From assembly GCA_963702025.1 (NCBI GenBank), contig OY969699.1:1280001-1344000 (forward strand): a stretch of 64,000 nt of DNA, written 5' to 3'. Each line of letters begins with the position of its first letter. The first letter of the stretch is position 1. Positions 3,276 to 59,101 of the stretch are shown piece after piece. Origin of the DNA: an uncultured bacterium. Its GTDB lineage: Bacteria; Babelota; Babeliae; Babelales; Vermiphilaceae. The position numbers and the translations under genes are program-made. Below the pieces are notes generated by a model that worked only from the letters and a program-made list of their open reading frames with translations, was not told where the DNA came from and ran no database searches.

Positions 3276-3309
3276 AAAAAGGGATTCGTTTTATCGAATC
3301 CCTTTTTTT
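3276..3309. terminator. Bidirectional intrinsic terminator
   Basis: aaaaagggattcg-tttat-cgaatccctttttt type hairpin with A and T tails, after the hydrolase stop. Confidence 0.75.
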
Positions 3310-3348
3310 AATTTCTTCTGGAGAATTGACTCTACTTCGCACCTACGG

Positions 3349-3424
3349 ATCCCTCGACCCTGCTCGGGAGTAAACAGTCCTTCCGCTCATCCTGAGTAGA
3401 AAACGCAGTTTTCGTATCGAAGGA
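3349..3424. repeat. Inverted doublet of family-1 REP-like hairpins
   Basis: 3349-3375 degenerate copy; 3383-3424 ccgctcatcctgagtagaaaac-gca-gttttcgtatcgaagga, matching copies at 52155, 52502 and 62662. Confidence 0.8.
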
Positions 3425-3478
3425 CGAAGGACAGCCGACGCATTTTGCTATCAAACTTTATGTTACTTCCTTAAGTAT

Positions 3479-3517
3479 TGGCGAAGCCAGGCGTAGCCCC
3501 TTGTGGGCGAAGACTGG
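3479..3517. repeat. Family-2 hairpin fused to tRNA-Met 3' end
   Basis: ccagg-cGTAg-ccc-cttgt-ggg-cGAAg-actgg; its terminal tgg is the tRNA CCA. Confidence 0.75.
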
Positions 3518-3591
3518 TGGCTACGCAGGGATTCGAACCCCGGACCTACGGATTATGATTCCGCCGCTCTAACCAACTGAGCTACGTAGCC
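3515..3591 (-). tRNA. tRNA-Met (CAT), elongator type
   Basis: GGCTACGTAGCTCAGTTGGTTAGAGC...CAT...GGTTCGAATCCCTGCGTAGCCACCA cloverleaf with encoded CCA. Confidence 0.9.
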
Positions 3592-3627
3592 TAAAAATGG
3601 AAATTTTTGATATACCTTAATTATACA

Positions 3628-5187
3628 TTAAATACGTAATTTTTGAATATTAAATGTATTTAAAATGAAGGTAAATGTTGATCTCAAGAAAAACAGACCG
3701 GTAATCAGTGTTGAAATGATACCAAGCATCATAGTTACTGCAAAACCTTTGATAGGACCAGTACCAAAATAAAATAATACTGCACCGACAATAAAGGTGG
3801 TAATATTTGCATCCAAAATAACCACCAATGCATCAGAAAAACCACTATCTACTGCTTTTCTAATAGTGGCCCCATGTGATAAGGCTTCTCTGATTTGTTC
3901 GTAAATCAAAATAGAAGCATCAATTGCCATACCAACCGTGAGCACCAATCCCGCAATTCCCGGCAATGTTAATGTAGCCCTTAAAAAAGACATTGCGACG
4001 AGGATTAACAGCAAGTTATATAACAAGGTAATAAATGCCAAAATCCCACATGCTTTATAAAATACAATGCTGAACACCAAGAGTAACGCTAAGCCAACTA
4101 AGCAAGAAATCAAACCTTGTCTAATCGATTCGGCACCCAGTGATGGGCCAATCTGGCGCTCTTCTTCGAAAGTCACCGGAGCAACAAAGGCACCGGAGTT
4201 GAGCAAGGTGGCCAATTGTTTTGCGGCATCAACGGTAAAACCGCCTTCGATCTTCCCACTATCACGAATTGCAACATTGATATTTGGCGCCATGACAACT
4301 TTACCATCAAGAACAACAGCCAAACGTTTGCCAACGTTTTTGCTCGTTAAATCATAGAATTTATTGCCACCCTCGCTGGTCAAATTAAAAATCACCACCG
4401 GCTCAGCACCCATTTTACTTTGATCAAGGGTTGCTTGCGCAGAACGTAAATCTTTACCGCTCACTTCGGCAAACTTAGAAACCAAATAATAAACTTCGGG
4501 TTTACCTTCAGCCTCTTGGCCGGGTAGAATTTCCATATCACCGGGTAAAATCCCATCAAGATCATACAAAATATCTTCGGGAGATCTGCCCACTTTTTCC
4601 ACAAGTTTAAACTCGAGAACTGCCGCTTTACCAATCATTTGCTTAGCTTGTTGTGGGTCAGATACATCGGGCAGTTCAACGATAATATTTTTTTCGCCCT
4701 GTGCAGCAATGGTAATTTCTTCCACACTTAATTTATTTAACCGGGTACGCAAAACTTCTACGTTACGCGCAACAGCATCTTCTTTTATTTTGTTCACAAT
4801 GCGTTCTGGCAATGTTAGGCGAATACTTTGATTATTGGTTACAATTTTTAGATCTTTTTCGTATGATTCAATAGCTGCCGCAGCTGCTTGCGTGGCAGCG
4901 GGAGAAGAAAAAGTTAAAACAATAGCATCTTTTTCTATATTTTTGGTTACCGGCTGTTCTTTGTTAGCATCTTTAAGTTTATTAGTTATGGCTTGCAACT
5001 TAGAAATGAGCTCAGTTTCTACCGCTTTATCTGTCTGTACTTCAAGAGTTATATAGGTTCCACCAACCAGATCTATGCCATAGCGAAGCGTTTTGCGTAA
5101 CGGCCATAACATATAGCAACATAATAAAGCTAATACTATCCAAAAAGAAAACCACGAGAATAATCCTCGTTGCGCAGTAACATTCAT
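3628..5187 (-). CDS. secD: Protein translocase subunit SecD
   Basis: YGIDLVGG, IGPSLG, TLTLPGIAG, DANITT and GPIKGFA motifs. Confidence 0.97.
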   Translation of the reverse strand: MNVTAQRGLFSWFSFWIVLALLCCYMLWPLRKTLRYGIDLVGGTYITLEVQTDKAVETELISKLQAITNKLKDANKEQPVTKNIEKDAIVLTFSSPAATQAAAAAIESYEKDLKIVTNNQSIRLTLPERIVNKIKEDAVARNVEVLRTRLNKLSVEEITIAAQGEKNIIVELPDVSDPQQAKQMIGKAAVLEFKLVEKVGRSPEDILYDLDGILPGDMEILPGQEAEGKPEVYYLVSKFAEVSGKDLRSAQATLDQSKMGAEPVVIFNLTSEGGNKFYDLTSKNVGKRLAVVLDGKVVMAPNINVAIRDSGKIEGGFTVDAAKQLATLLNSGAFVAPVTFEEERQIGPSLGAESIRQGLISCLVGLALLLVFSIVFYKACGILAFITLLYNLLLILVAMSFLRATLTLPGIAGLVLTVGMAIDASILIYEQIREALSHGATIRKAVDSGFSDALVVILDANITTFIVGAVLFYFGTGPIKGFAVTMMLGIISTLITGLFFLRSTFTFILNTFNIQKLRI

Positions 5188-5254
5188 TTGAGCTCCTCAC
5201 TACCGGCAGTAATATTAATCATATTTTTAACCATATTTTTTTAGTTTCATTAAA

Positions 5255-5282
5255 GATGCTTCGACTCGCTCAGCACGAACGG
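5255..5282. repeat. Family-1 REP-like hairpin (short variant)
   Basis: gatgcttcgactcgctcagcacgaacgg; near-identical reverse complement at 55510-55537. Confidence 0.8.
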
Positions 5283-5342
5283 ATTGAGGACAATCTTGTC
5301 TTTTTTCTACTAAACTTTATTTAAAATCAACCTTAAAAATGC

Positions 5343-5397
5343 TGGCTGCGCCAGGCGTAGCTTGCCGAGCCGGAAGGCCCGGATAAGCGTAGACTGG
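5343..5397. repeat. Family-2 hairpin fused to tRNA-Leu 3' end
   Basis: ccagg-cGTAg-ctt...aag-cGTAg-actgg ending in the tRNA CCA; similar to the inverted copy at 15624-15669. Confidence 0.75.
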
Positions 5398-5481
5398 TGC
5401 CGAGGAGGGGACTCGAACCCCTACAGGATTTCTCCCGCAGCCACCTCAAGGCTGTGTGTATACCAGTTTCACCACCTCGGC
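5395..5481 (-). tRNA. tRNA-Leu (GAG)
   Basis: GCCGAGGTGGTGAAACTGGTATACAC...cagcc-TTGAGGT-ggctg, long variable arm, GGTTCGAGTCCC...ACCA. Confidence 0.95.
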
Positions 5482-5544
5482 AATTTCAAAATAAGCACAA
5501 GAAACTGTATCACAAAAAAAGGCGGTAATCAAACGTTATTAACG

Positions 5545-6831
5545 TTATTCGATCTCTTGGTCGATGTCAGATTCATAATCAATATTTTCAGAAACCTCGT
5601 CAGAACGATCAGGAGCAGAATCTTCAACTTCTTGAGATCCGCCAAACCAACCCGAAAACAAGTTGAAAATACCTGCAACACCGTTACCTATGGCCCTTAC
5701 CGGGAATGTTACCCAATGCCACAATGTGCCCAAAATGCCACGTGGTTGTTCCTCCTCAGCTTCTTCCTCTTCGCTAGGAACCGCTTTGCACGGTTTTCGA
5801 AGTTTAAGCGCTTGCACTTGCAAATCAATACCCTTTTCCTTGAGGCCCTGCATAAGCTCTTTGCTGCGCTCCACCTCAGTTTGAGCCTTCGTGATTAATT
5901 GATCAAAATATTTGGTATAAGCATCAGCTAAATAGTTATTGATATTGTTAAGATTTTTCCAAAAGGTATCCATGGCGTAATAAAGCTCACGCGCACGTTT
6001 ATCACTCAATTCGCGATTGATCGCTTTAAAGTGATCCCACGATTGCTGCTCATAATGGCGCGCTTGATTTAACTGTTCCAAAAGTTTAATCAGTGCATCA
6101 TCAACTGCATGACTGACTTTCATAATATTTTGAGAAGAAAGTTGTAACTGCTCTAAATTCTTCTTTTCTTCAGCAAGCAATCTTTGTAAATTGCGCGATT
6201 GTTCATCTTGATCTTTTGTTTGCTCTTGGCCGATTTGAGCAGTTAATGTAGCAATAATTTCAGTAAGTTCCCCTTCCTCAAAACCATTTTTTAAATAAAA
6301 TGGATCCAGAATCATATGATCCAATTCATGCCGGCGCGCAAAAAAGCCCATGCGTAATTCAAAAATCTTATCAAAAAGCTGCCTGGTTTTTTCATAAAGC
6401 CGTTCCGCTTTTTCCCACCAGATTTTTTTATAGAGCCAATTTCCTTTTGGTTCAGCCATCTTTTCTGTATCGAGCGCTTTTATCTCAATTTCCTCTTCCG
6501 GCTGCTCAGGCGCTGTAACTGCGATCGGCTGTTCTTGCACAGGGGCAGGAACTGGCTTTTCCGGTTCAGCTTTGGCCTGCTCTTGTAGTTGAACGGCAGG
6601 CGCAACCTCTTGCTCTGGCGCTACCGCTTGTTCTTGGGGAGGTGTTTCTTGCGCAGGCATTTGTTCTGCCGGCGCTTGTTCTGCCGATTCTAGTACCTCT
6701 TGCTTTTGCTCTTGCTCAGCCGGCAGTGCCTCACTAACCGCTTGTGGTTGATTTTGTTCCTGACTTGTCTGTGCAGAAAGGAGCAAATTTATGCTCAGTG
6801 TTATGCATGCAAACATATGTTTTTTTTGCAT
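5545..6831 (-). CDS. Secreted hypothetical protein with Q/E/P-rich linker, coiled coil and acidic tail
   Basis: 428-aa ORF with signal peptide and low-complexity N-terminus. Confidence 0.7.
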   Translation of the reverse strand: MQKKHMFACITLSINLLLSAQTSQEQNQPQAVSEALPAEQEQKQEVLESAEQAPAEQMPAQETPPQEQAVAPEQEVAPAVQLQEQAKAEPEKPVPAPVQEQPIAVTAPEQPEEEIEIKALDTEKMAEPKGNWLYKKIWWEKAERLYEKTRQLFDKIFELRMGFFARRHELDHMILDPFYLKNGFEEGELTEIIATLTAQIGQEQTKDQDEQSRNLQRLLAEEKKNLEQLQLSSQNIMKVSHAVDDALIKLLEQLNQARHYEQQSWDHFKAINRELSDKRARELYYAMDTFWKNLNNINNYLADAYTKYFDQLITKAQTEVERSKELMQGLKEKGIDLQVQALKLRKPCKAVPSEEEEAEEEQPRGILGTLWHWVTFPVRAIGNGVAGIFNLFSGWFGGSQEVEDSAPDRSDEVSENIDYESDIDQEIE

Positions 6832-6866
6832 ATCAGTTCCTTGATAACGAATTATTGAACGTTACA

Positions 6867-7328
6867 TCAAAGTGTCTGGGAAAGTTCTTTTAACTCGTTC
6901 ATCAGTGCCTTGGAAAGCTCCTCTGCTTCCCATGATGTATAGCTCCAACGTACGCCTGATTCAACTCGAGTTAATACTGACCTATCACTTTTGATATCGA
7001 TGATATCAATACGCACAACATTCATCAATGGATGAACCAATGATGGTGCGCGCACTACTCCTGCACGACCCAAAATGCTGTAAGCAACATTCTCTTCGTC
7101 CAAGAAACAAAGCATAACCTTTTTTTGCCAAACCATGTTATGGTAGCCGGTATGATCTTTATTAATCGTCATCAAGATACTTTCAAGCCCTTTGGGATAC
7201 ACACATTGAATCGGTGTTGTATGCGGAAGTCCCTTTTCGGAGAATGTTGCTAAAACTGCAACGGTTTGTCCACGTTTTAGAATTCTTATTAAATCATCAG
7301 GAAGTTTAATGCCGACATGCTTTGCCAT
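6867..7328 (-). CDS. Pyridoxamine 5'-phosphate oxidase-like (FMN-binding split barrel) protein
   Basis: VLATFSEKGLPH pattern; start inferred at ATG 7328. Confidence 0.65.
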   Translation of the reverse strand: MAKHVGIKLPDDLIRILKRGQTVAVLATFSEKGLPHTTPIQCVYPKGLESILMTINKDHTGYHNMVWQKKVMLCFLDEENVAYSILGRAGVVRAPSLVHPLMNVVRIDIIDIKSDRSVLTRVESGVRWSYTSWEAEELSKALMNELKELSQTL

Positions 7329-7370
7329 AGGTAATCCCACCCTTCGGTTTAGAAAACAATACAATAATTT

Positions 7371-8525
7371 TTAAATTGATAAACGAGCAGCTATATCATT
7401 TTGAACTGCCAAACCTGCCACTGTTAAAACCACTCTATCCTCTTTCACCTGCAAGAATTTATGCTCTTGCAAAAGCTGTAAAGAGTGCTCCATTATTTTT
7501 TTTTGCTCGAGAGGTAATCCCTCAAAAAGATCATGTAGTGATATTCCTTCTGCTCTGCGCAAACCGAGCATGGTACGCTCAAGCATAATTTGCTTATCGG
7601 TTAAGTCTTCACTAAATACGGTTATATCTTCTCCCGCTTCAATTGCTGTGATATATTTCATAAGATTTTTTTGATTGGTAAATCGTGAGCGACCATCAAA
7701 TGAGCATGCGCCAAGGCCCAATCCTTTGTATGGCTTTCGATCCCAATAGATCGAGTTATGCGCGGACCGAAATCCTTTTTTTGCAAAATTAGAAACTTCA
7801 TATTGCTCAATGCCATGTTCTTTTAAAAATTCGATTGTCCATTCATACAACTCAACCATAGCATCATCTTCCACCAGCTTTATCTCATTTCTTTTCACTC
7901 TGAAAAAAAGTGCTGTTTCTTCGTGCACTGTTAAAAAGTATATTGAAATATGTGTAATCGGCCATGCCACCACTATTGCAAGAAGTTCTTTCCATTCTTG
8001 CGCGCTTACGCCTGGCAACCCCAAAATAAGATCTATCGATATATTTTGAAAGTCTTTTGAGGCTCGCTGTACGAGCCATAAAACATCATCTTTTGTTTGT
8101 TTTCGATTTAAATTATTCAAAACTGAATCCTTCAGGCCCTGCACACCAACACTAAGCCTATTTATACCTGCCGCTTTCCAAGTCACCAAATGCGATTCAC
8201 GAACAGTTCCGGGATTAACTTCTATAGTAATCTCACAGTTGTCTTCTATATTGAACTTCTTTCTTAGTGTACCAAACGTGTCAAGTAGGAGACTTTCGGG
8301 CCAGGTACTCGGAGTTCCACCTCCCAGAAAAATGGTATCCAGCGCCAGTTTTGAAGAACCTGATTTGGCAAAGTTTTGAATCTCCTCCATCAAAGCCCTA
8401 TGATATTGCTCCATATAGTGATCTTGCCCTGCAATAGCCACAAAAGGACAAAAATGGCATTTATAAGGGCAAAATGGCCAATGAATATAAAGAGAACGTG
8501 TTGCCGGGAAAAAAGTTGAACTCAT
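7371..8525 (-). CDS. hemW: Radical SAM heme chaperone HemW (HemN-like)
   Basis: YIHWPFCPYKCHFC, GGGTPS, YEVSNF, HNSIYW. Confidence 0.9.
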   Translation of the reverse strand: MSSTFFPATRSLYIHWPFCPYKCHFCPFVAIAGQDHYMEQYHRALMEEIQNFAKSGSSKLALDTIFLGGGTPSTWPESLLLDTFGTLRKKFNIEDNCEITIEVNPGTVRESHLVTWKAAGINRLSVGVQGLKDSVLNNLNRKQTKDDVLWLVQRASKDFQNISIDLILGLPGVSAQEWKELLAIVVAWPITHISIYFLTVHEETALFFRVKRNEIKLVEDDAMVELYEWTIEFLKEHGIEQYEVSNFAKKGFRSAHNSIYWDRKPYKGLGLGACSFDGRSRFTNQKNLMKYITAIEAGEDITVFSEDLTDKQIMLERTMLGLRRAEGISLHDLFEGLPLEQKKIMEHSLQLLQEHKFLQVKEDRVVLTVAGLAVQNDIAARLSI

Positions 8526-8533
8526 AATTTTTG

Positions 8534-9052
8534 TTATTTCTGTTGCGCTGAATTGTTGAGAGATATCTGTTTAATGCTATCGCAACAAACATCAATATGG
8601 TGATTGAGCCGATTTTTGAGCGCCTCTTCTTGCGCATATTTCACGCCCGAACTTTCTTGCACCAATGTTGCAATACTCTCCTGAAATTGCGCGGGCAATG
8701 TCGTTTTTTGTAATGCCTGAACCATCTCTTGGTCAGTAAGCCCTTCAAATCTGGTATGAAAATGATGTTGAAAAAATTCTTTAAGGACAGCTGTTAGCGT
8801 AAAGTAGGCACGATGCGCATCTTCGCGCGATGCTATTTGGCCTGAGCGTAACTCGTGCAAAATGCGCAGCGCTTTTTGGGCAGGTGATTCGACTTTTTTT
8901 GCGATAAATCTTTTAATAAGAGGAATTACGAGCGCTATAAACACCGTGAGAGCACAGACTATTGCGCTTATCTTAAATAGAGTTGTCTGCCAAAAGGGCA
9001 CATGCAAATGCCCGTAAATATCTAATAAATCATTCTCTGATACTGGTTTCAT
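8534..9052 (-). CDS. Membrane-anchored Bat-operon-associated protein (DUF4381-like)
   Basis: LLDIY...W then a TM helix, GLTDQE, VKYA; adjacent to a DUF58 gene. Confidence 0.55.
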   Translation of the reverse strand: MKPVSENDLLDIYGHLHVPFWQTTLFKISAIVCALTVFIALVIPLIKRFIAKKVESPAQKALRILHELRSGQIASREDAHRAYFTLTAVLKEFFQHHFHTRFEGLTDQEMVQALQKTTLPAQFQESIATLVQESSGVKYAQEEALKNRLNHHIDVCCDSIKQISLNNSAQQK

Positions 9053-9130
9053 GCAATTCCTTCAAAAAAAAATCGGATAATATTAGTATAGCAAGCATTA
9101 TAATTTATTATAGCCAAAGCATGCTGCTCA

Positions 9131-9997
9131 TCAAACCAAGCGAGCTTTGAAGAAATGAATAAGTTGATCGACAAGCTGATCATTGGTCGCTAAATTCAAG
9201 CAATCAATACGATTTTTTGCAAACAGCTTTTTTTGCTCATCCAAACGCTCATCTAAGGCAGCCTGCAACTTTTTTGCAGTTGATCTTCGCGCGTCAATAA
9301 TAGCCTCTTGCCCTGTCTCACTATCCCGAGCAGTAATTAGCCCTAGTGAAGGGAAATGCATTTCATAGGAATCGGTCACCCGAACCACAATGAGATCATA
9401 CATGCGAGCAACAACTGCAATGTTTTTTTCAAAAGAATGGTCATCAATAAAATCGGAAATCATAATCACCATTGCATTTTTTTTGCGCAATGCAGCAATA
9501 TACTCAAGAGCGCTATTAATATTGGTACCCGCGGAATTGGAGCACAGCGTGAATATTTTTTCAAGAATATTCTGAATGTGCGTTTTCCCTTTAGCCGGCG
9601 GGATATATAATTGTATTGAACTGGCAAAAAGAACTAGTCCCACCTCATCTTTACCCAAATATGCCGCATAGCCAATAAGTGCGGCAATCTGCGATTGAAT
9701 TTCCTGTTTTAATGCACTCCCCGAACCGTACCAACATGAACTTGAACAATCGATTGCCAGTATAACGGTCTTGTATCGCTCATCGGTAAACTCTTTAATA
9801 AGCAACTTATTCATGCGCGCAGAGCTGTTCCAATCTATCGATCTCACGTCATCGCCAATCTGATAATCACGCAGCTGATTAAATTCTAGCCCCGAACCCT
9901 TGGTTACCGAACGAGCATTGCCCAGCAAATTCACTTTCATCAATCGCTTGGTGGCAAGCTCAAGATTCTTTATATGCTGTGCAACGGATGGATTCAT
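9131..9997 (-). CDS. DUF58 / vWA-domain protein
   Basis: GSGLEFNQLRDYQIGDDVRSIDWNSSAR, DCSSS MIDAS, ISDF. Confidence 0.92.
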   Translation of the reverse strand: MNPSVAQHIKNLELATKRLMKVNLLGNARSVTKGSGLEFNQLRDYQIGDDVRSIDWNSSARMNKLLIKEFTDERYKTVILAIDCSSSCWYGSGSALKQEIQSQIAALIGYAAYLGKDEVGLVLFASSIQLYIPPAKGKTHIQNILEKIFTLCSNSAGTNINSALEYIAALRKKNAMVIMISDFIDDHSFEKNIAVVARMYDLIVVRVTDSYEMHFPSLGLITARDSETGQEAIIDARRSTAKKLQAALDERLDEQKKLFAKNRIDCLNLATNDQLVDQLIHFFKARLV

Positions 9998-11232
9998 ACA
10001 AATAGTGCCTCTTTTTTTAATATATCAGGAATTGTCACCGAACCGTCAGGATTTTGATAGACCTCAAGCAAAGCGACTAATAAGCGTGAAAGAGCTAATG
10101 ATGAACCGTTAAGAGTGTAGACCAATTCGCTCTTGCTTTCGGGGGATCGTTTATAGCGTATCAAGCCTCGCCGTGCTTGGAAATCGGTACAATTACTGAT
10201 CGAAGAAACTTCATAGTATTGTTTTTGCCCCGGCAACCAGACTTCAATATCATATGTTTTTGATGACGCGAATGAGCAATCTTGCGCCGCAAGTAAACTG
10301 ATCCGATAATGCAATCCTAGTTGTCGCAAAATATCTTCCGCACAAGCAAGCATACGTTCTTGTTCTTGATTGGCATGCTCGGGTTCGCAGAGGGTAAATA
10401 GTTCAACTTTTTCAAATTGATGTATACGAATTAATCCGCGTTCATGCGCACCGTAACCACCCGCTTCGCGGCGAAAGCAACTGGTCCAGGCAGTCATGCG
10501 AATTGGCAATTCGGTAGCTGTTAGAATCTTATCGCGATATATATTGCAAAGATTCACTTCAGCAGTCGGAGTTAAGAATAACTTATCTTCAGGAACGGAA
10601 TAAATTTGGTCATGAAATCGAGGCAAATTACTTGAGACAATAAGCGATTGTTCATTAACCAAATACGGTGGCAGAATTGGATCATATCCATGCTTAATAT
10701 TATTTTTGAGCATAAACATACTCAATGCGTACATGATCCGAACGCCATCATTTTTATATAAAACAAAATTACTACCCGTCATGCGTATCGCTGCATCAAA
10801 ATCGATCCAGCCAAGCGCCGTGGCAAGTTCAACGTGATTTTTTACGGGAAAATTTTGCGTAACTTTTGCGCCAAAAGTTTTGATCACTTGATTTGCTTCT
10901 TTGCCGCCGACCGGGATCGATTCTTCGGGAATATTGGGACAACTTAAATACAAATTTCTAAAATTGAGCTCTAATGATTCCAGTTGGGTTTCTTTTATCT
11001 TGAGAATTTTGCCAACTTCTACCGATTGCGTCCGCAATTCTTCCGTTATGCCAGATTTACCCTGTTTGGCAAGCTCATTCTTTTTATGACGCAGCTCTTC
11101 TACTTCCAATCGCAACTTGCGAAGCTGAATGTCCCAATCATATAACTTTTGAGCATCAAAGGTCGGATCTTTTCTTTTCAAAAGTCCGATAATACGCTCA
11201 GGCTGTTCTCGTAAGAGATTTAAATCTATCAT
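9994..11232 (-). CDS. serS: Seryl-tRNA synthetase
   Basis: PTAEV, CFRREAG, GLIRIHQFEKVE, EVSSISNCTDFQARR, TLNGS. Confidence 0.98.
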   Translation of the reverse strand: MIDLNLLREQPERIIGLLKRKDPTFDAQKLYDWDIQLRKLRLEVEELRHKKNELAKQGKSGITEELRTQSVEVGKILKIKETQLESLELNFRNLYLSCPNIPEESIPVGGKEANQVIKTFGAKVTQNFPVKNHVELATALGWIDFDAAIRMTGSNFVLYKNDGVRIMYALSMFMLKNNIKHGYDPILPPYLVNEQSLIVSSNLPRFHDQIYSVPEDKLFLTPTAEVNLCNIYRDKILTATELPIRMTAWTSCFRREAGGYGAHERGLIRIHQFEKVELFTLCEPEHANQEQERMLACAEDILRQLGLHYRISLLAAQDCSFASSKTYDIEVWLPGQKQYYEVSSISNCTDFQARRGLIRYKRSPESKSELVYTLNGSSLALSRLLVALLEVYQNPDGSVTIPDILKKEALFV

Positions 11233-11310
11233 TATTTATCCGATGCATTAATAGCTAAAAGCCTACCAATACAGCAATGATACTGGAAATACCCCCTTTT
11301 GAAAAGGGCA

Positions 11311-11340
11311 AAAAATAAGGCCGCGGATGCGACCTTATTG
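11311..11340 (-). terminator. Intrinsic terminator after HU gene
   Basis: Minus strand aataaggtcgc-atcc-gcggccttatt-tttt. Confidence 0.7.
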
Positions 11341-11366
11341 AGTAAAAGCTTATTCTAAAACGTCAA

Positions 11367-11654
11367 CTAACCAAGCTTAATTGATCGTACAATTTCCCGT
11401 AAGTTTTTGCCCGCTTTAAAACGAGGAACATTAACTGCCGGCAAATCAATACGCTGTTTAGTTGCGGGATTGATTCCTTTACGAGCAGGACGGCGTGAAA
11501 GCCAGAAGCTGCCGAATCCGGTAATAGAAACTTTTTCTCCGCGTTTGAGCGTGCGCTCAATTATACGGGTGAAAGAATCTAAAACGCGTGAAACATCTTT
11601 TTTGCTAAAAGTTGTTTCCTCACTGAGTGAATTTATTAATTCACTTTTATTCAT
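11367..11654 (-). CDS. hup: HU family DNA-binding protein
   Basis: MNKSELI, GFGSF, RKGINPAT, PRFKAGK. Confidence 0.95.
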   Translation of the reverse strand: MNKSELINSLSEETTFSKKDVSRVLDSFTRIIERTLKRGEKVSITGFGSFWLSRRPARKGINPATKQRIDLPAVNVPRFKAGKNLREIVRSIKLG

Positions 11655-11849
11655 AGTTACTCCTTAGAATGGTTAGATGTTAAAAGACTGCTACTTCATT
11701 AAAACTCTTATTTTTATTTTTACGCTAATGGTTGTAACATAGAGTAATTCTATTTACTAATTTGTCAAATAGAAGCAAAATTATTTACTGATTGCAGTAC
11801 TGTAAAAAATAAATATCGCAAATAAAGACAAAAAATATTTGAGGTTGCA

Positions 11850-12677
11850 ATGTTAATTGATACTCATTGCCATATAAATATGATGGTAAAAAAAGATTTT
11901 GATCGATTGTTGACCACCGATGAAATAAAAGCGGCGGGCGATATAGTCAAAGCCGCTCACGCCAACGGCGTCCATTTTATTGTCAACGTTGGCACTTCAC
12001 TGCCTGAAAGTAAAAATTGTGTCACCTTGGCCAAAGAATTAAAGCCGGTGATTGCCGCAATCGGTATCCATCCCAATGATTTAACCCCTTCATGGCGCAG
12101 TGATTTAAAAGAACTTGCATCATATCTAAAGAATAAGCAGGAAAACAAAGTTGTAGCTATCGGCGAATGCGGTATGGATTTTCATTACCCCGATTATAAC
12201 ATCCAACAACAAAAAGATGCATTTAAGGCGCAAATAGAACTTTCATTGGAACACTCAATTGCACTTATTGTACACACCCGCGATGCCCGCGATGAAACAT
12301 TAGGCGTTATTGAAGAATATATAGGGGATATTACTAAGGGCATAATTCATTGTTTTTCGGAAGATATGGATTTTGCCCGAACGGTAATCGATTGGGGATT
12401 TGCGATCGGCATCGGCGGCACAATAACCTATCCCAAAAATGAGTATCTGCGCACTATTGTTAAGACCGTAAAGCTGGAAAATATAGTATTAGAAACGGAC
12501 GCACCCTTTTTGCCTGTCCAAGAGATGCGCGGTAAACAAAACAGTCCCGCATATATAAAAAACATTGCAGAATATATTGCACAATTACGCAATGAGCCAT
12601 TTGAAAACGTTGCACAAAAAACAAGCGCGGCAGCACAAAAAATATTTGATATTGAAAATTTTAATTATATGTGGTGA
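11850..12677 (+). CDS. tatD: TatD family deoxyribonuclease
   Basis: IDTHCH, GIHP, IGECGMD, HTRDA, HCF, ETDAPFL. Confidence 0.95.
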   Translation: MLIDTHCHINMMVKKDFDRLLTTDEIKAAGDIVKAAHANGVHFIVNVGTSLPESKNCVTLAKELKPVIAAIGIHPNDLTPSWRSDLKELASYLKNKQENKVVAIGECGMDFHYPDYNIQQQKDAFKAQIELSLEHSIALIVHTRDARDETLGVIEEYIGDITKGIIHCFSEDMDFARTVIDWGFAIGIGGTITYPKNEYLRTIVKTVKLENIVLETDAPFLPVQEMRGKQNSPAYIKNIAEYIAQLRNEPFENVAQKTSAAAQKIFDIENFNYMW

Positions 12678-13139
12678 TTACCATCTCATCATGCGCCGCA
12701 ATCCAAGATCGAGCCACAAATGAGAAACGGCACCGATAATGAAAAAAAGCGTATCAAAAAAAATAATGCGATTGCAGTCTGGCGCATAGCTACATAAAAA
12801 GAGTGCCGCAACCAAAGGAATAATGATCACAAACCATAATCTATGAAATATTCCCCGATGATTCACGAGCACCGGAACTGCGCAGATAAACCCTAAAATA
12901 ATAAGAGCTTGAATGCGCTCTTTTACGAGCAAAACAACGGCAAGCAATAATGCTATCCAATAAAATAATTTCTGCCCTTTGCTTTTAACATCTACATCCG
13001 GAAATAATGCCCCGGCCAATGTGAATAAAAGCCATTCAATACCAGTTGCCAAGGAAATTACTTGCGTTGTCAGTACAAAATAAATTGCGACTAAGTAGAA
13101 AAAAACACCACCGGCAAGATGGCCCTTATAATTGGGCAT
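12678..13139 (-). CDS. Membrane-bound metal-dependent hydrolase (YdjM-like)
   Basis: GHL, PDVD, HRGIFH, SHLWLD. Confidence 0.85.
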   Translation of the reverse strand: MPNYKGHLAGGVFFYLVAIYFVLTTQVISLATGIEWLLFTLAGALFPDVDVKSKGQKLFYWIALLLAVVLLVKERIQALIILGFICAVPVLVNHRGIFHRLWFVIIIPLVAALFLCSYAPDCNRIIFFDTLFFIIGAVSHLWLDLGLRRMMRW

Positions 13140-13154
13140 TACTAATTCCTTTTT

Positions 13155-14318
13155 TTACGTCAAACGCATAAAACTGGTATCGGGATAATAGAAATTTAAT
13201 ACCGATTTATACGAATATCCTTGGCGCACCATTTCCCGTGCTCCCCATTGGCAGAGCCCTAAATGGTGCCCAATCCCTCTGCCGCTAAAAATGACCTTAT
13301 CCGCGTTGACGCACACATCAAAACAGAAACTGCGTACCTTTGCAAGCATTGAATACACTTTTTTACCGGGCAGTGAAATAAGTTTGTGCTGACTCTTAAT
13401 GTGCACCTGTTGCACCAAGCCTGCCTTATCGGTTTTGGCGACCGAAACCTGCTTTATTTTCTTGAGATTTTTATATTCTTTTTTTACCATCTGCTCGAAT
13501 TGTTCCAATGGGTAAGAAGCGGACCAATTATACATTTTACAATCTTTACAAAAGGTACACGGCATTTTGCGAGCCAAATATGGCGCGTGTAAAAAATTTA
13601 CGCCATGAATATCAAACGGCGTAACTCCACCGCAACACGAATCAAACATCGCCACAATTGGCTTACCTTCGTGTGATAGGAATATGCCTCGGGTTTGCTC
13701 AACTGCTTCTTTGAGAACCGGATCGGTGTGCACACCCGAATAGGTCTGATGTTTATTGGTATTTTTTACATGATACGGCAATGTACTATTTTTATTATTA
13801 AGAACTACCCCAATAACATAGCTGCGCGAGGCAATTGCAAATGCTTTATTAACTTCTAATGGCCAACCCGGCCAACTTTCAGTGCGTAGAACTGAACATA
13901 CATACTCTTCCAAATCCAATGAATTAATAAGATAGAGAGTCTGTGCTTGTCTGGTTACCAGTAATGATCCGTGATATTCTTTACCGTCAAACTTTAGATT
14001 GCCCTGCACTGGCAATATATAGAGTGTTTGACTGTCAAATACAACACCATTTACTTCAAAAAACTTTTTTTTATAGGCCACATCTAGTTCGCGCCCTTCA
14101 ATTGCCATCTTTTTTTTTGAGGTTGGATTTACAACGGTAAACCCATATTCTGACCCAATCTGCCAATCAGTTTTTTCATGAATATTTTTTTCTTGTAAAA
14201 GAACCCGTACATGGTAAGTACGTTTTTTGACAGGCTGATTCTGAGGTGCTTCTTGACTGCATAGGGAGAAACTGTGAAAAATAAATAAAATAATAAATAA
14301 TTTACCAGGATATTTCAT
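13155..14318 (-). CDS. SpoIID/LytB domain lytic transglycosylase
   Basis: LEEYV...E...W...KAFAIASRSY, CCGG, GIGHHLGLCQWGA, FYYP. Confidence 0.92.
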   Translation of the reverse strand: MKYPGKLFIILFIFHSFSLCSQEAPQNQPVKKRTYHVRVLLQEKNIHEKTDWQIGSEYGFTVVNPTSKKKMAIEGRELDVAYKKKFFEVNGVVFDSQTLYILPVQGNLKFDGKEYHGSLLVTRQAQTLYLINSLDLEEYVCSVLRTESWPGWPLEVNKAFAIASRSYVIGVVLNNKNSTLPYHVKNTNKHQTYSGVHTDPVLKEAVEQTRGIFLSHEGKPIVAMFDSCCGGVTPFDIHGVNFLHAPYLARKMPCTFCKDCKMYNWSASYPLEQFEQMVKKEYKNLKKIKQVSVAKTDKAGLVQQVHIKSQHKLISLPGKKVYSMLAKVRSFCFDVCVNADKVIFSGRGIGHHLGLCQWGAREMVRQGYSYKSVLNFYYPDTSFMRLT

Positions 14319-14820
14319 GTTTCTCTAAAAGTGTAATGAACCCCGTTGGAAGTGAAACTTTCTTGTCGATTCCTACATTTGCCATTTCATCTGCTATCTC
14401 ATTCTTTTCGCGCAATACATGCGCAATAGAAAAATGAACACCATGCAACATTTTTTTTGCGAGCATATGCAAAGGAAGAAGCTCGGGATGTTTAACCCGA
14501 TACTCACCTTTAAACTGCTTTACCAAAAGTTCTGAATCAGAAAAAATATCCAAGTGATCGGCAACGCCATCATGTTCATGAAAAAAATAGAGACCAACCA
14601 ATAATGCCGCATATTCTGCTTGATTATTTGTTTTGCTACCCAGATAAAAGCCTTTTTTAACTATCGGTTTATCATTCTTGCACAGATAAATACCAGCACC
14701 TGCTGGCCCGGGATTCTTGCGCGCGGCACCATCAATAAAGAGCCGCCAATGATCGGGATGTTCTTTAGTATTCTTTTCATGCGCATCCGGCGCAAATATG
14801 GTAAGATTATTATGCTTCAT
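14302..14820 (-). CDS. rnhA: Ribonuclease HI (short archaeal/actinobacterial type)
   Basis: DGAARKNPGPAG, TNNQAEY, DSELLV, REKNEIADEMAN. Confidence 0.92.
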   Translation of the reverse strand: MKHNNLTIFAPDAHEKNTKEHPDHWRLFIDGAARKNPGPAGAGIYLCKNDKPIVKKGFYLGSKTNNQAEYAALLVGLYFFHEHDGVADHLDIFSDSELLVKQFKGEYRVKHPELLPLHMLAKKMLHGVHFSIAHVLREKNEIADEMANVGIDKKVSLPTGFITLLEKHEISW

Positions 14821-15542
14821 GCTGCATCATTTTTTAATTGGGCTTCTGGCAAATAGAGTAAACGAAAACAATCTTTGCATTGCATAAGCTTTCTGTGTTT
14901 GAGTGCTTGCATATCCTGTGCCGAAACTTTATAAAAACAGGCACTACAACTACCATCAACGACTGGAACAACCGGATCGGTTACCCGTGAACGCATAACC
15001 GCATACTTTTGCAACCATTCTTCCGGAATGCCTTTTTCTTTCTGGACCCGGTCAGCCATTAGTGTGGCGATTTCACCATTAATTTGTTCAATATGTTGAT
15101 TATTTTTTTCTTTATTTTGGTTCGCGGTTTGTTCTTGCTGCTCATAATTCTTGACTGCTCCCTCAAGTTCTTTTTTAGCCAATTCAGCTTGATTCCATGC
15201 GTCAACAAGTACTTGTTCAAGATCATGTTGTGCTTTTTTTATTTTATCTATTTCAGATTTAATGGACTGGTATTCTTTATGATTTGCTACGTTCTCAAGC
15301 CGCTTTTTTTTGTCTGCCTCTTGCTGATCAAGAGTTTTCATTTCAAGTTCTTTAGCATCCACTTCTTTGCGAATATCATGAAACTTGTTTTTCATCACAT
15401 CGAGAGCCTGTTTATTGGCAGCGTCTTGCAGAACAATCTGAGCATTTTCTTTAGTAAGTGAAGCTATAGTGGCATTTAAACTATTGATTTTTTGATCAAC
15501 CTGGACAAGCATAATGAACTGTTCAAAAGGCGTTTGAGTCAT
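14817..15542 (-). CDS. Coiled-coil C4 zinc-ribbon protein (CT398/DUF164-like)
   Basis: Long coiled coil with CSAC...CKDCFRLLY; GGAG SD before ATG 15542. Confidence 0.88.
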   Translation of the reverse strand: MTQTPFEQFIMLVQVDQKINSLNATIASLTKENAQIVLQDAANKQALDVMKNKFHDIRKEVDAKELEMKTLDQQEADKKKRLENVANHKEYQSIKSEIDKIKKAQHDLEQVLVDAWNQAELAKKELEGAVKNYEQQEQTANQNKEKNNQHIEQINGEIATLMADRVQKEKGIPEEWLQKYAVMRSRVTDPVVPVVDGSCSACFYKVSAQDMQALKHRKLMQCKDCFRLLYLPEAQLKNDAA

Positions 15543-15598
15543 GCGCTTCTCCAATAAGAATTGTTTTATTAATTATAGCTGAAAGCTAATTGTGCCTT

Positions 15599-15763
15599 CC
15601 TTTAAAGAACTGACCGTGCCAGTCCAGCCTTCGCTTATCCACGCCTTCCGGCTTGGCAAGCTACGGCGGACAGCCTACGCTTGGTGCTATAATGTCAACT
15701 TTTCGTCTCAAATCAATCCTTCAAAGAACTGGCCGTGCCAGCCGAAGCCTTGGCGTAGGCTGG
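15599..15763. repeat. Repeat cluster 3' of tRNA-Ile2: two family-2 hairpins and a 24-bp direct repeat
   Basis: DR 15599-15622 vs 15718-15741 (22/24 identical); hairpins at 15624-15669 and 15738-15763. Confidence 0.75.
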
Positions 15764-15836
15764 TGGGCCCACCAGGATTTGAACCTGGGACCTCTCGGTT
15801 ATGAGCCGATTGCTCTAACCGCTGAGCTATGGGCCC
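15761..15836 (-). tRNA. tRNA with CAT anticodon, probably tRNA-Ile2 (lysidine)
   Basis: GGGCCCATAGCTCAGCGGTTAGAGC...CTCATAA...GGTTCAAATCCTGGTGGGCCCACCA; the Ile-like acceptor stem suggests Ile2 identity. Confidence 0.85.
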
Positions 15837-52054: not shown

Positions 52055-52199
52055 ATATCATTCGACACGCTTCGCTACTCCGGATGTGTTCCTAAAACTT
52101 ATTTAAAGCTTAAAACTTACTCGATGTTTTTTACACTTTCTCATGAACTTTTAACCACACATCCTGAATAAAAAATCGAAGATTTTTGTATCGAAGGAT
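52055..52199. repeat. Inverted pair of family-1 hairpins downstream of the GIY-YIG gene
   Basis: 52055-52089 degenerate copy; 52155-52199 inverted long-stem copy. Confidence 0.85.
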
Positions 52200-52202
52200 T
52201 TC

Positions 52203-52498
52203 CTACTTTTTAATATTAAAGTTTTTTTTAGATAAAAGTTTTATCTTGTTCCAGTCTTTAGCAAGTAGGGCCGCTTTTTTCTTTCTCGACCATCCTTTGA
52301 TTTGTCTTTCAATAATCAGAGCATCATCTTTTGTTGCAAAATCTTGAACAAAAACTAATTCAACCGGCAACGTGAAGCTGTAGAATATCCACCCTGCCTA
52401 TTGTTATGTTCTGCAAACCTTTGCTCAAGATCCCTCGTTAGTCCAACATAATAAGAATTATCGGCACATTTTAACATATAAACAAAATAACTTTTCAT
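52203..52498 (-). pseudogene. GIY-YIG nuclease (UPF0213/YhbQ-like), broken by a 1-nt deletion near 52370
   Basis: MKSYFVYMLKCADNSYYVGLTRDLEQRFAEHN...TASR, then in the shifted frame LPVELVFVQDFATKDDALIIERQIKGWSRKKKAALL...TAG. Confidence 0.9.
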
Positions 52499-52501
52499 AA
52501 C

Positions 52502-52658
52502 TTTGAATATCCTTCGATACGCTTCGCTACTCAGGATGTGTGATTTCAAATTCTCTTAAATATTAAAATTTTTCATTTGTCATACAAAATAACTATTTCA
52601 AGCTGATAGCATTTAATTTGAATATCCTTCGATACGCTTCGCTACTCAGGATGTGTGA
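52502..52658. repeat. Two identical 42-bp family-1 repeats (52502-52543, 52617-52658) with a 73-bp spacer
   Basis: tttgaatatccttcgatacgcttcgctactcaggatgtgtga twice. Confidence 0.95.
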
Positions 52659-52661
52659 AGA

Positions 52662-53264
52662 TTAAAATGGTCTACGTTCAGATAATGCCTTATACACGGT
52701 AACTCTATCCATCGATTCTATGGCGGATCCTACCGGAATGCCACGCGCCAGACAAGAAATCTTAACGCCACTTTGCCGTAATTTGCTCGCGATAAACGAT
52801 GCTGTTGCCTCACCTTCTGGCGTCTGATTTGTTGCTAAAATAATTTCTGCAATCTGACTATTTTCAACGCGATGAATCAAGGGGATAATATTTAAATTTT
52901 CCGGGCCGATTCCTTCCAAGGGGCAAATTGCCCCACCAAGCACATGATAGACACCGGTATAACCGCCGGTTTTTTCTATCGCAATAAGCTCTTGCCATGT
53001 CTCTACCACGCAGACAAGCGATTGATCACGGCGCGTATTGGAGCACAACGAACAGGCGCGATCTTTTTCGCGCCATGAAAAGCAGGTGCCGCATTGGGTT
53101 ATATTTTGTTTTACTTCTTTAAGAGTTGCACAAAATTGATCAACCTTGTGTTCCTCAAGGTGCAAAAAATAGCTGGCGACTCGATAAATATTTTTTGAAG
53201 CCAGATAGGGCACTTGCTGCAAGGTTTTAAGAAGTCTGGTGAGCGAAGGGGTTTCTGGCAACAT
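52662..53264 (-). CDS. recR: Recombination protein RecR
   Basis: C4 zinc finger, YHVLGG, ILATN.TPEGEATA, LARGIP. Confidence 0.95.
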   Translation of the reverse strand: MLPETPSLTRLLKTLQQVPYLASKNIYRVASYFLHLEEHKVDQFCATLKEVKQNITQCGTCFSWREKDRACSLCSNTRRDQSLVCVVETWQELIAIEKTGGYTGVYHVLGGAICPLEGIGPENLNIIPLIHRVENSQIAEIILATNQTPEGEATASFIASKLRQSGVKISCLARGIPVGSAIESMDRVTVYKALSERRPF

Positions 53265-56985: not shown

Positions 56986-57405
56986 CGCTACAATGAAGTC
57001 AGGATTTTTTTCTAAAACACGTCCGAATGCTTGGGAAATCACGTTCTGTTTTTCCTCCATACTCAACTGATCGTAATGAGAAAATTCTTTATCCGTTTGG
57101 GCTTCTTGTAAAGTTTCCTGTAAAATTGGGTAACTGTATTCGTTAAGTGATTCAACCGAAATGGTCCTTCCATCTGTTAAATTTTTTATTTTCTCAGCGA
57201 ATGATTTAAACTCCGGCGATTCAAGATCTCTCTGCGCAGAAGCCTCCAGGAGTTCCCCATGTTTTTTTATAACAGCATCAAGTTCATGAATGAGCTTTCT
57301 CGATTGTGGCTTTAACTGATTAAGCCAACTCTGCTCAATTGGTTTTTCCATAGCAGAAATAGTCGCAACACCAAATATTAAAAGCAGTAATAATCGTAAT
57401 TTCAT
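56977..57405 (-). CDS. Secreted hypothetical protein (signal peptide + AMEKP)
   Basis: MKLRLLLLLIFGVATISA-MEKP; helical acidic body. Confidence 0.65.
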   Translation of the reverse strand: MKLRLLLLLIFGVATISAMEKPIEQSWLNQLKPQSRKLIHELDAVIKKHGELLEASAQRDLESPEFKSFAEKIKNLTDGRTISVESLNEYSYPILQETLQEAQTDKEFSHYDQLSMEEKQNVISQAFGRVLEKNPDFIVALG

Positions 57406-57413
57406 TGACAACC

Positions 57414-58247
57414 TCACTCCAACTTAGTTTTCCCATTATATTGTTTAAGCAATTGAATTATTTGGTTCCCTTTTGCTGGATCCCGAATATTTTTGACCGC
57501 ATTAGCAACTTCAGTCTTTGCAATACCTTGATCCGCACCTGCCTCAAGAAGCATTTGAATTATAACTGGATTTTCTTCAAGAATGGCAATTACAAGGGGG
57601 ATAATTGAAGATCGAGAGCTCGTATAAGCATTCGGATCAGCCCCAAGCTCTAAAAGCTTATCTACCATTTCGACGTTATCATTTGCGATTGCTGCTCCCA
57701 GCGGAGATATATCTAAATCATCAAAAAGCTCAATGCTTGCACCAAGATTCACTAAAAAAGTAAAAAGCGTTACATTATTTTTTTGTATTGCAAGCAAAAA
57801 ATCTCTCTGCAGTTGTTTAAGAAATTTATCTTCATCCTGATCGTGAGATAGCGAAGCCGGAATTAAGCCCTTTTGATAATTCTGTTTATACCAATCTCGT
57901 GCGCCCGGGACATTTAAACGAGCCGCAACATCAATATAGGCATAATGCGCATCATCAGGGTCGATTGTTGTCCCAAATTTCTCATATAACTGTTCCATAA
58001 TATCGTCCGTTATTTGATCATCATCAAGCAAGTTACGAATTTGTATACTATCCGCACCTGCTTTATGTATTCCATTAATAGCTTCATCTAGGGTTACTGC
58101 ATTGGCAATAATATTTTTTATTATTGGACGCATAGTTAGTTGCTGAAGGCTTAATGGCTCGAATAACTTTAATCGTAAATTAGGGATTTCGGGCGCAAAA
58201 ATGGTTCCGAAGACAAATAGCGAAAGTCCTAACAATCGCAATTTCAT
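57414..58247 (-). CDS. Secreted ankyrin-repeat protein
   Basis: SPLGAAIANDNVEMVDKLLELGADPN, PLVIAI...MLLEAGAD; paralog of neighbour. Confidence 0.9.
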   Translation of the reverse strand: MKLRLLGLSLFVFGTIFAPEIPNLRLKLFEPLSLQQLTMRPIIKNIIANAVTLDEAINGIHKAGADSIQIRNLLDDDQITDDIMEQLYEKFGTTIDPDDAHYAYIDVAARLNVPGARDWYKQNYQKGLIPASLSHDQDEDKFLKQLQRDFLLAIQKNNVTLFTFLVNLGASIELFDDLDISPLGAAIANDNVEMVDKLLELGADPNAYTSSRSSIIPLVIAILEENPVIIQMLLEAGADQGIAKTEVANAVKNIRDPAKGNQIIQLLKQYNGKTKLE

Positions 58248-58258
58248 TATTCTTCTCC

Positions 58259-59101
58259 TTACTCCAACTTAGTTTTCTCGGTATATGGTTTAAGCAATTG
58301 AATTATTTTGTTTCTTGTTGCAGGATCCTGAATATCTTGTACGGCCTTGGCAACATTTACTGTTGGAGTTGCGATATTTTGATCAGCACCTGCCTCAAGA
58401 AGCATTCGAACTATGTCCGGATTTTCTTTATGTATTGCTGTTATAAGTGGAGTCGCCAAAAAGAATCCGGCATTTCCGTTAGGATCAGCCCCCATATCTA
58501 AAAGCTTTTTTACCACTTGAACGTTGTCACTCCTAATCGCTTCGCCCAATGGAGATATACTAAACCCAGCGAAAAGCTCAATGCTCGCTCCAAGATTTAA
58601 TAAAAAATTAAAGAATATGAGATTATTTGCTCTTATAGCAGCCAAAAATTCTTTATTTAACCATAGACGAAATCGTTCCTCAGTTTTTTCTTGGGGTTTC
58701 TCAAAGATTATGCCCTTATCATAATTCTGAGCATACCAATCTCGCGCACCTTGGGTATTTAAACGAGCAGCGATATCAATATAGGCATAATGCGTATCAT
58801 CTGGACTGATTTCGGCCCCAAATTTATCATATAACTGTTTCATAATATCATTCGTTATTTGCTCATTATCAAGTAAGTTAAGAATTTGAATATTATCTGT
58901 AGCTGCTTTATGTATTCCATTAATTGCTTGATTTAAAGTAGCCGCATTGGCAATAATATTTTTTATTATTGGGCGCATAGTTAGTTGCTGCAAACTTAAT
59001 GGCTGGAATTGTTTTACTTGCGCTTGCACAGGCGGTTTTTCCATCGCACCACTGGTTAAAACAGCTAAAAAAGTAATCATTACACATGCTTGGATCTTCA
59101 T
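58259..59101 (-). CDS. Secreted ankyrin-repeat protein (signal peptide + AMEKP)
   Basis: SPLGEAI...KLLDMGADPN, TPLITAIH...MLLEAGAD. Confidence 0.9.
   Translation of the reverse strand: MKIQACVMITFLAVLTSGAMEKPPVQAQVKQFQPLSLQQLTMRPIIKNIIANAATLNQAINGIHKAATDNIQILNLLDNEQITNDIMKQLYDKFGAEISPDDTHYAYIDIAARLNTQGARDWYAQNYDKGIIFEKPQEKTEERFRLWLNKEFLAAIRANNLIFFNFLLNLGASIELFAGFSISPLGEAIRSDNVQVVKKLLDMGADPNGNAGFFLATPLITAIHKENPDIVRMLLEAGADQNIATPTVNVAKAVQDIQDPATRNKIIQLLKPYTEKTKLE

Follow-up and report, generated by a model that had tools for sequence, protein, structure and literature searches.

The window analysed here is a stretch of 64,000 nucleotides (nt) from the genome of an uncultured bacterium of the Babelota (family Vermiphilaceae; contig OY969699.1), in which three tRNA genes, for Met, Leu and Ile2, are each followed by a hairpin that begins at the encoded CCA. 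The observation is real, and the hairpins belong to a widespread tRNA-end element made up of hairpins and a GIY-YIG nuclease gene. The copies in the window are gene-less forms of this small DNA element, the full form of which carries an SLX1-like GIY-YIG nuclease of about 80 residues. The sequence behind the CCA, referred to below as the trailer, is likely an undescribed selfish element that spreads from tRNA gene to tRNA gene, and not a processing signal.

Anatomy of the trailers

As described in the initial annotation, each of the three tRNAs has a "family-2" hairpin that starts exactly at its encoded CCA, and the trailers read as they were written there. The shared register was likewise reproduced: the hairpin, designated H1, begins at the CCA in Met (3487-3517), Leu (5351-5397) and Ile2 (15738-15763). 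Its consensus, located directly at the CCA in all three tRNAs, is CCA-NNN-TWC-G...C-TWC-NNN-TGG. A mini-hairpin, H2 (TGGC-N2-4-GCCA), has as its arm the 3' arm of H1, and the order of the parts after the CCA is H1, H2, an AT-rich spacer, a 10-nt inverted repeat of the trailer start and a third hairpin, H3. The 10-nt repeats, i.e., terminal inverted repeats, which are a trait of MITEs (miniature transposable elements with inverted repeats), are perfect in Ile2 and decayed in Met and Leu, and the H1 outer stems of Met and Leu show a T·C mismatch at pair 5. The long-range stem formed by the repeats covaries, with 37, 37 and 38 of 38 Watson-Crick pairs at three positions in 38 selected trailers. 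The features of the three loci, all on the minus strand unless indicated, are listed below; the third tRNA was found by ARAGORN with anticodon CAT, and we take it to be of the Ile2 type.

3515..3591, minus: tRNA-Met(CAT), encoded CCA (ARAGORN)
3487..3517, minus: H1 hairpin of the Met trailer, from the CCA onward, TTC/TAC internal loop
3479..3489, minus: H2 mini-hairpin of the Met trailer (TGGC...GCCA, "second CCA"), overlapping the H1 3' arm
3432..3441, minus: decayed partner of the first 10 nt of the Met trailer, long-range inverted repeat (by eye)
3330..3431, minus: H3-type hairpin of Met, split by a nested copy of another repeat family (by eye)
3276..3307, no strand assigned: terminator-like hairpin flanked on either side by A/T runs, some 200 nt beyond the Met tRNA, outside the element
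3628..5187, minus: secD, on the same strand between the Leu and Met tRNAs
5395..5481, minus: tRNA-Leu(GAG), encoded CCA (ARAGORN)
5351..5397, minus: H1 hairpin of the Leu trailer, extended inner stem
5343..5353, minus: H2 mini-hairpin of the Leu trailer, followed by a T run, flagged terminator-like
15761..15836, minus: tRNA with CAT anticodon (Met/Ile2), encoded CCA (ARAGORN); a GAPDH gene lies upstream of it
15738..15763, minus: H1 hairpin of the Ile2 trailer, outer stem a perfect 6 bp
15730..15740, minus: H2 mini-hairpin of the Ile2 trailer, followed by a T run, flagged terminator-like
15671..15680, minus: perfect 10-nt inverted repeat of the Ile2 trailer start (long-range stem)
15623..15670, minus: H3 hairpin of Ile2, reverse-complement type of H1, GTA/GAA internal loop
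15598..15622, minus: second H2 and T-rich unit of Ile2, a 92% direct repeat of 15717-15741 (family D14)

Other hairpin repeat families are nested within the tRNA trailers at 3330-3431 and 5257-5281 of the window, and such hairpin-in-hairpin nesting was found at many tRNAs of this genome.

Distribution within the genome

The genome (G000; 1.6 Mb in one contig, 95% complete) was scored for the start motif, CCA+NNN+T(A/T)CGC, at all tRNA genes, as the initial annotation had proposed. The motif occurs at 30 of the 40 ARAGORN tRNA/tmRNA ends (28 of 38 tRNA genes and both tmRNA ends), compared with 77 of about 45,950 other CCAs (0.17%). Nor is it equally common after any CCAG: 54 of 6,671 CCAG sites carry it, tRNA ends included. 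The refuting condition set in the initial annotation therefore does not hold. Almost all of the H1/H2 modules (21 of 24) fall within 600 nt 3' of a tRNA or tmRNA gene, in zones that make up 0.75% of the genome, and the same zones contain 15 of the 16 downstream modules. Copies are also located between the same-strand tRNAs of a Tyr-Gly-Thr-Thr-Trp cluster.

Exact trailer starts of 23-84 nt are common to 11 tRNA/tmRNA pairs. For the window, the first 47 nt after the CCA of Leu(GAG) are those of a tRNA-Phe trailer (C1:1193982), the first 31 nt of the Ile2 trailer recur at a tmRNA 3' remnant (C1:182482), and the first 29 nt of the Met trailer are shared with another tRNA-Met (C1:243147).

The motif is absent from ten tRNAs. 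For three of these, Arg(TCT), Gln and Asp, the adjoining gene encodes a large serine recombinase. Two, Ile(GAT) and Ala(TGC), are part of the rRNA operon; another two, Trp and Val(GAC), lead directly into open reading frames (ORFs); and Arg(CCT), Glu and Pro are followed by other or decayed hairpins. Ile- and Ala-type ends with a trailer are among the matches listed in another genome, and these tRNAs are therefore not forbidden sites. No element was seen in G000 after the 5S rRNA or the RNase P RNA end, and there was no signal recognition particle (SRP) motif match.

At the loci of Arg(TCT), Gln and Asp (L544, L545 and L546), the recombinase genes converge on the tRNA 3' end and two read into it. 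Three element copies have no tRNA upstream, at C1:1246414 (plus), C1:44499 (minus) and C1:1019370 (plus); two of these trailers begin at a CCA, and the third is an intact tRNA-type nuclease gene behind an element. Such copies possibly mark the ends of unrecognised small RNAs; Rfam, searched with two of the copies away from tRNAs and with six further upstream regions that had no explanation, gave no credible match. An island of about 9.6 kb (C1:182482-192477, minus) is bounded by the tmRNA gene on one side and by a duplicate of the tmRNA 3' part on the other; it contains a 2087-aa ORF and has a different trailer at each end.

The GIY-YIG nuclease gene

The gene that accompanies the hairpins lies outside the window and was not seen in the initial annotation. 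Among eight GIY-YIG matches in G000, an intact 86-aa gene is positioned 229 nt behind tRNA-Arg(ACG), after a full trailer. Nuclease-coding positions in G000 include C1:1567658. At 50 of 80 GTDB loci, in many phyla, a homologue of the nuclease is found no more than 600 nt behind a tRNA or tmRNA gene on the same strand; of the remaining loci, 4 show a tRNA 3' fragment and the motif, and 26 show none or have insufficient flank. Among cultured bacteria, Chthoniobacter flavus has such a cassette behind its tmRNA (L093). Within the order, the gene is found behind a tRNA or tmRNA gene in 22 of 30 loci (those of G000 included) and in 48 of 60 further loci drawn from 150 listed matches, i.e., 70 of 90 overall. 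A control clade of small GIY-YIG proteins from the same genomes is so placed in none of 30 loci. One broken gene of the control clade occurs in the window itself (52340-52489, minus), between hairpin repeats of another family, D3 (52055-52685).

The product is a small single-domain GIY-YIG protein of about 80 residues (PF01541, E 2e-17), in which Y5, Y17, G19, R27, H31 and E63 are conserved at 98-100% among 157 sequences. By both sequence and fold, its closest solved relatives are SLX1/HIGLE and UPF0213 proteins (PDB 7wme, 7cq2, 6sei and 1zg2). The structure model has a pLDDT of 93.6 and TM scores of 0.71-0.73 to the top four folds, HIGLE/Slx1 being the best, and a single-sequence model was poor (pLDDT 66). 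No NCBIfam family scored above its cut-off for four of the GIY-YIG proteins. A 51-row tree was built from 35 sampled tRNA-type proteins, 15 control proteins and one NTS-adjacent protein (single and long-branched); the 35 tRNA-type rows lie together on one side of a branch (99/88), which sets them off from the NTS-adjacent row. BLASTP aligned a tRNA-type protein with the NTS-adjacent protein at 34% identity over 67 aa.

Turnover among relatives

The initial annotation called for a comparison of orthologous tRNA loci, and this revealed patchy presence of the trailer and turnover of its sequence. In 151 genomes of the order, the tRNA-plus-trailer pattern occurs 0-30 times per genome (0-1 for a reversed control; counts of 1 may be chance), with a median of 6 and 22 genomes that lack any copy. 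The median is 8 in genomes with the nuclease gene (6 after subtraction of gene copies) versus 1 in those without (90 and 61 genomes, which are related and thus not independent). The orthologous tRNA-Met, inspected by eye in 28 relatives, has 4 clear copies, 2 decayed copies and no trailer in the other 22.

Within the genus, orthologous trailers are no more similar (score 0.475 over 40 nt) than non-orthologous ones (0.494), in a comparison that includes only part of the tRNA sets of four relatives (G004-G007). The orthologue is the best trailer match in 1 of 29 cases, near-identical trailers (0.95-0.97) occur at different tRNAs, and the secD DNA that flanks the trailers is 71-78% identical. In viral contigs, 121 loci match the tRNA-plus-trailer start pattern, many maybe by chance, and none has the nuclease within 500 nt.

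Complete cassettes and tRNA-end duplications

In 8 of 156 distinct cassettes, GTTCG-(A)CCTG occurs no more than 100 nt behind the nuclease gene, succeeded by an H3-type hairpin and, directly after it, the 3' end of the host tRNA. The duplicated tRNA end, a repeat of 16-19 nt, starts at A58 of the T loop (off by one base in two cases; none in a control window), and the eight junctions represent six tRNA types. These cassettes span about 400-550 nt and contain a single ORF, the GIY-YIG gene of 79-92 aa, with no integrase or recombinase gene; the cassettes inspected showed no reverse transcriptase. When 261 genomes were searched with the pattern, four matched, and these included one new case (G216), with tRNA, gene and repeat as predicted. 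In G216 the upstream tRNA has CAC at its end, and the arm of H1 is GTG. In 121 trailers, the pairs of tRNA end and H1 arm are CCA/TGG (106), CAC/GTG (3), CAT/ATG (1) and others (11).

Ten tRNA-end repeats were flagged at first, of which one (L052) is a duplicate of another (L131) and was not counted separately; two others (L128 and L101) proved to be longer tandem duplications that lack the right-end motif, and are not among the eight. A metagenome scan for the right-end junction returned one chance match in a coding region; the pattern mixed two subtypes and was a poor test. At four loci (L073, L081, L521 and L494), the cassette interrupts a tRNA gene, and that tRNA is also present as an intact copy downstream of the nuclease gene; the insertion points are after GTTCG in the T loop, in the anticodon loop, or after an internal CCA. 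Another locus (L543, G082 C49) consists of a tandem array of complete cassettes behind tRNA-Arg(TCT), the units of which are bounded by the tRNA-end repeat.

Of the two explanations offered in the initial annotation, site-specific insertion at tRNA 3' ends is backed by patchy copy number, turnover at orthologous loci and the linked nuclease gene, and further by the tRNA-end duplications; a domesticated processing or termination signal finds no support as the primary explanation.

A DNA-level element or an RNA signal

H3 is the reverse-complement type of H1, with GWA/GWA versus TWC/TWC internal loops (52 and 51 unique cases), and the same structure is therefore presented on both strands. G·T pairs are scarce in H1 stems (3 of 488, versus 16 of 444 in tRNA stems; p 0.002), a count biased by the hairpin finder, which selected Watson-Crick pairs. 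The scarcity of G·T and the reverse-complement twin hairpin favour a DNA-level element over an RNA signal. Counts of G·T and A·C, compared as a test of strand asymmetry, gave no information either way (3 and 6 in the outer stems of H1; 8 and 5 in H3).

The domesticated RNA signal, in which H1 would hide the CCA and H2 with its T run would terminate transcription or direct 3' processing, is in our estimation unlikely. Arguments for it are the occupancy of 28 of the 38 tRNAs and the fixed orientation relative to the tRNA. The H2 and T run were also flagged as terminator-like for Leu and Ile2; Met was not flagged and has its own terminator-like hairpin at 3276-3307, and at least 5 T in the next 10 nt follow only 9 of 26 H2 units. 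Whether CCAG/CTGG pairing would hide the CCA depends on transcript length: most of 12 folds predict that the CCA pairs with the trailer, but the probability ranges from 0.0 to 1.0, because the TGG arm can pair instead with the second GCCA, in H2. Whole-trailer RNA folding is weak (z 0.32 for Met, -1.53 for Leu), and Rfam gave only tRNA matches in the window and at four nuclease loci, with no T-box or other RNA family. The many relatives without the motif (22 of 151 genomes, and 22 of 28 orthologous tRNA-Met loci by eye) and the copies between same-strand tRNAs in the Tyr-Gly-Thr-Thr-Trp cluster also speak against an RNA signal.

A second alternative is that trailers ride on integrase-driven islands whose att sites rebuild tRNA 3' ends, with host homologous recombination spreading them and the nuclease as a passenger. 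The tmRNA island, with different trailers at its two ends, would fit this scheme, as would the T loop, a known crossover sub-site of integrases, and the occupation of three trailer-less tRNAs by serine recombinase genes. Against it, the tRNAs that adjoin recombinase genes are ones without trailers; the duplicated cassettes contain no integrase and measure only about 400-550 nt, trailers occur at 28 different tRNA genes, and the tie to the site holds for one nuclease clade and not for the control clade. We regard this explanation as quite unlikely. The last alternative is an RNA switch (H1 versus H2 and the long-range stem, loosely T-box-like in its UGG:CCA pairing) by which nuclease expression would be tied to tRNA processing, or else movement via an RNA copy. 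It draws on the mutual exclusion of H1 and H2, the covariation of the long-range stem among the selected matches and the gene that follows on the same strand, but is very improbable, given a long-range stem without G·U pairs, no T-box match in Rfam, no reverse transcriptase in the cassettes inspected and, in most copies, no gene to regulate.

Proposed mechanism

For the selfish element, the anatomy, the gene link, the turnover and the tRNA 3'-end repeat behind some cassettes are observations, and from these we infer all of the enzymatic steps. The nuclease probably nicks single-stranded DNA (ssDNA) beside the hairpins, with host repair copying the element to tRNA ends. It would recognise a stem with a 3x3 internal loop in transient ssDNA and cut on the 5' side, by analogy with SsnA and NTS, and the inverted hairpins at both ends would mark the borders of the element. 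Cuts at the T loop (TTCG^A58) and near the CCA end, followed by host repair, would result in insertion and the 16-19-nt duplication, leaving the upstream tRNA gene intact. The gene may then be lost, either by recombination between direct repeats or by decay, to give solo trailers such as those of the window, and intact nuclease genes elsewhere in the genome would keep copying trailers between tRNA loci. The pairing of the CCA with the TGG arm would be a feature of the DNA target or junction, any effect on RNA being secondary.

A more specific version can be put forward tentatively. It would be a minimal transposon-like element, with the 80-residue SLX1-like nuclease as its sole protein, that reads the tRNA gene as folded ssDNA; the element arm would pair with the last three tRNA bases as a built-in guide (TGG-CCA, GTG-CAC), and cuts at the T loop and the 3' end would place the element after a tRNA or tmRNA gene of any kind while leaving that gene unbroken, until the genome was nearly saturated.

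Several points, together with the bias in the G·T count, weigh against a nuclease-driven selfish element. The eight junction cases are clustered among kin (five from one genus), and 148 of the 156 cassettes lack the right-end motif. Of 101 loci, 64 have hairpins upstream of the gene and only 14 have them downstream. In a MITE target-site duplication test, no tRNA 3' 14-mer was repeated behind any trailer of G000, and no empty and filled versions of a site were found with flanks that could be aligned. At least 6 trailers are still held by 15 of the 61 genomes that have no match to the gene, and the control GIY-YIG clade also co-occurs weakly with trailer number (p 0.0004). No homologue of the nuclease was found in phage and plasmid collections, which therefore offer no vehicle for its spread across phyla. 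Finally, GIY-YIG nucleases are not known to join DNA, and host repair must therefore be assumed. As no duplication is seen in G000 and most cassettes are without the right end, complete elements are rare and the copies in the window are relics.

Comparison with known systems

The closest parallel is the Ssn system. SsnA is an ssDNA nuclease whose cut lies upstream of the hairpin by a few bases, and an origin resembling insertion sequences was suggested for Ssn by its authors (Chenal et al. 2025, PMC11893778). As outlined in the same source, Ssn systems combine a small single-domain GIY-YIG gene with oriented NTS/SRM hairpin repeats amplified genome-wide, and inverted hairpins flank the gene in complete copies; the tRNA-end element shares the small gene and the amplified, oriented repeats, and has a defined right end in 8 of 156 cassettes. 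By analogy, the tRNA-end element likely works like the Ssn/SRM nuclease-hairpin pairs. The differences are that the repeats here are confined to tRNA/tmRNA 3' ends (the word "tRNA" occurs 0 times in the main text of PMC11893778), and that the 3x3 internal-loop hairpin and the tRNA-end duplication are features of the present element. The degenerate SRM motif matches none of the 40 tRNA/tmRNA trailers and has 2 matches genome-wide, and the protein appears from its sequence to belong to a separate clade nearer SLX1, in a tree that holds one NTS-adjacent row. The element is not filed as Ssn because of this failed motif test and the apparently different clade.

Like Slx1/HIGLE and the stand-alone prokaryotic Slx1-like proteins (UPF0213), as summarised in part of PMC1564403, the nuclease has a minimal GIY-YIG domain with intact catalytic residues. 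The relevant part of PMC1564403 describes no repeat or tRNA-locus link for Slx1-like proteins. Among the differences, the nuclease here is without a RING or partner domain, and its gene lies in a patchy, often broken cassette.

In IS200/IS605 elements, a guide pairs with its target, an arm of the element being complementary to bases of the insertion site; the arm of the present element is similarly complementary. Extragenic imperfect palindromes, inverted pairs and gene-less copies that far outnumber the gene are also shared with REP/REPIN-RAYT and IS200/IS605 (as covered in part of PMC3733652). The partner is, however, a GIY-YIG protein, the tRNA-end register is strict, and a 16-19-nt tRNA-end repeat stands behind complete cassettes, unlike the insertion without target duplication of IS200/IS605. 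A REP/RAYT-type transposase as partner was rejected, as G000 (at 95% completeness) has no match to the Y1 (HUH) transposase family PF01797. The phage T4 homing endonuclease SegB, from a tRNA gene cluster (PMC2330249), is likewise encoded by a GIY-YIG gene that spreads in a tRNA gene region. SegB is a phage double-stranded DNA homing enzyme, in contrast to the 80-residue domain, cellular genomes, hairpin ends and many gene-less copies at different tRNAs found here.

Full-text searching, judged on titles and the beginnings of abstracts and with subscription literature mostly outside its scope, returned no description of a tRNA-end GIY-YIG/hairpin element. Term look-ups in the available parts of PMC11893778, PMC3733652, PMC1564403, PMC3184786 and PMC10969869 found no such element. 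With this element, a widespread, uncharacterised clade of minimal SLX1-like nucleases acquires a role in the genome, and the findings suggest a selfish element for which the universal tRNA 3' end is a safe harbour in many phyla. A new specificity, for ssDNA or for a structure, might be gained from the nuclease-hairpin pair. With 28 of 38 tRNAs occupied, G000 is near the top of its order (maximum of 30 pattern matches in 151 genomes), and is a good case for asking whether the element has been co-opted in tRNA maturation. It also serves as a warning that conserved tRNA trailers need not be RNA signals.

Other duplications

Two further observations concern duplicated sequences. At C1:1144000-1144480 (minus), tRNA-Arg(CCT) lacks an encoded CCA, and its 3' part recurs behind it as two tandem copies of 125 nt. 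In both copies an H3-type hairpin is inserted ahead of the T arm; upstream, the leader and first bases of the tRNA are duplicated and split by another hairpin family. In the window, at 57353-59101, two similar genes are tandemly duplicated about 845 nt apart, and the one that was scanned encodes ankyrin repeats.

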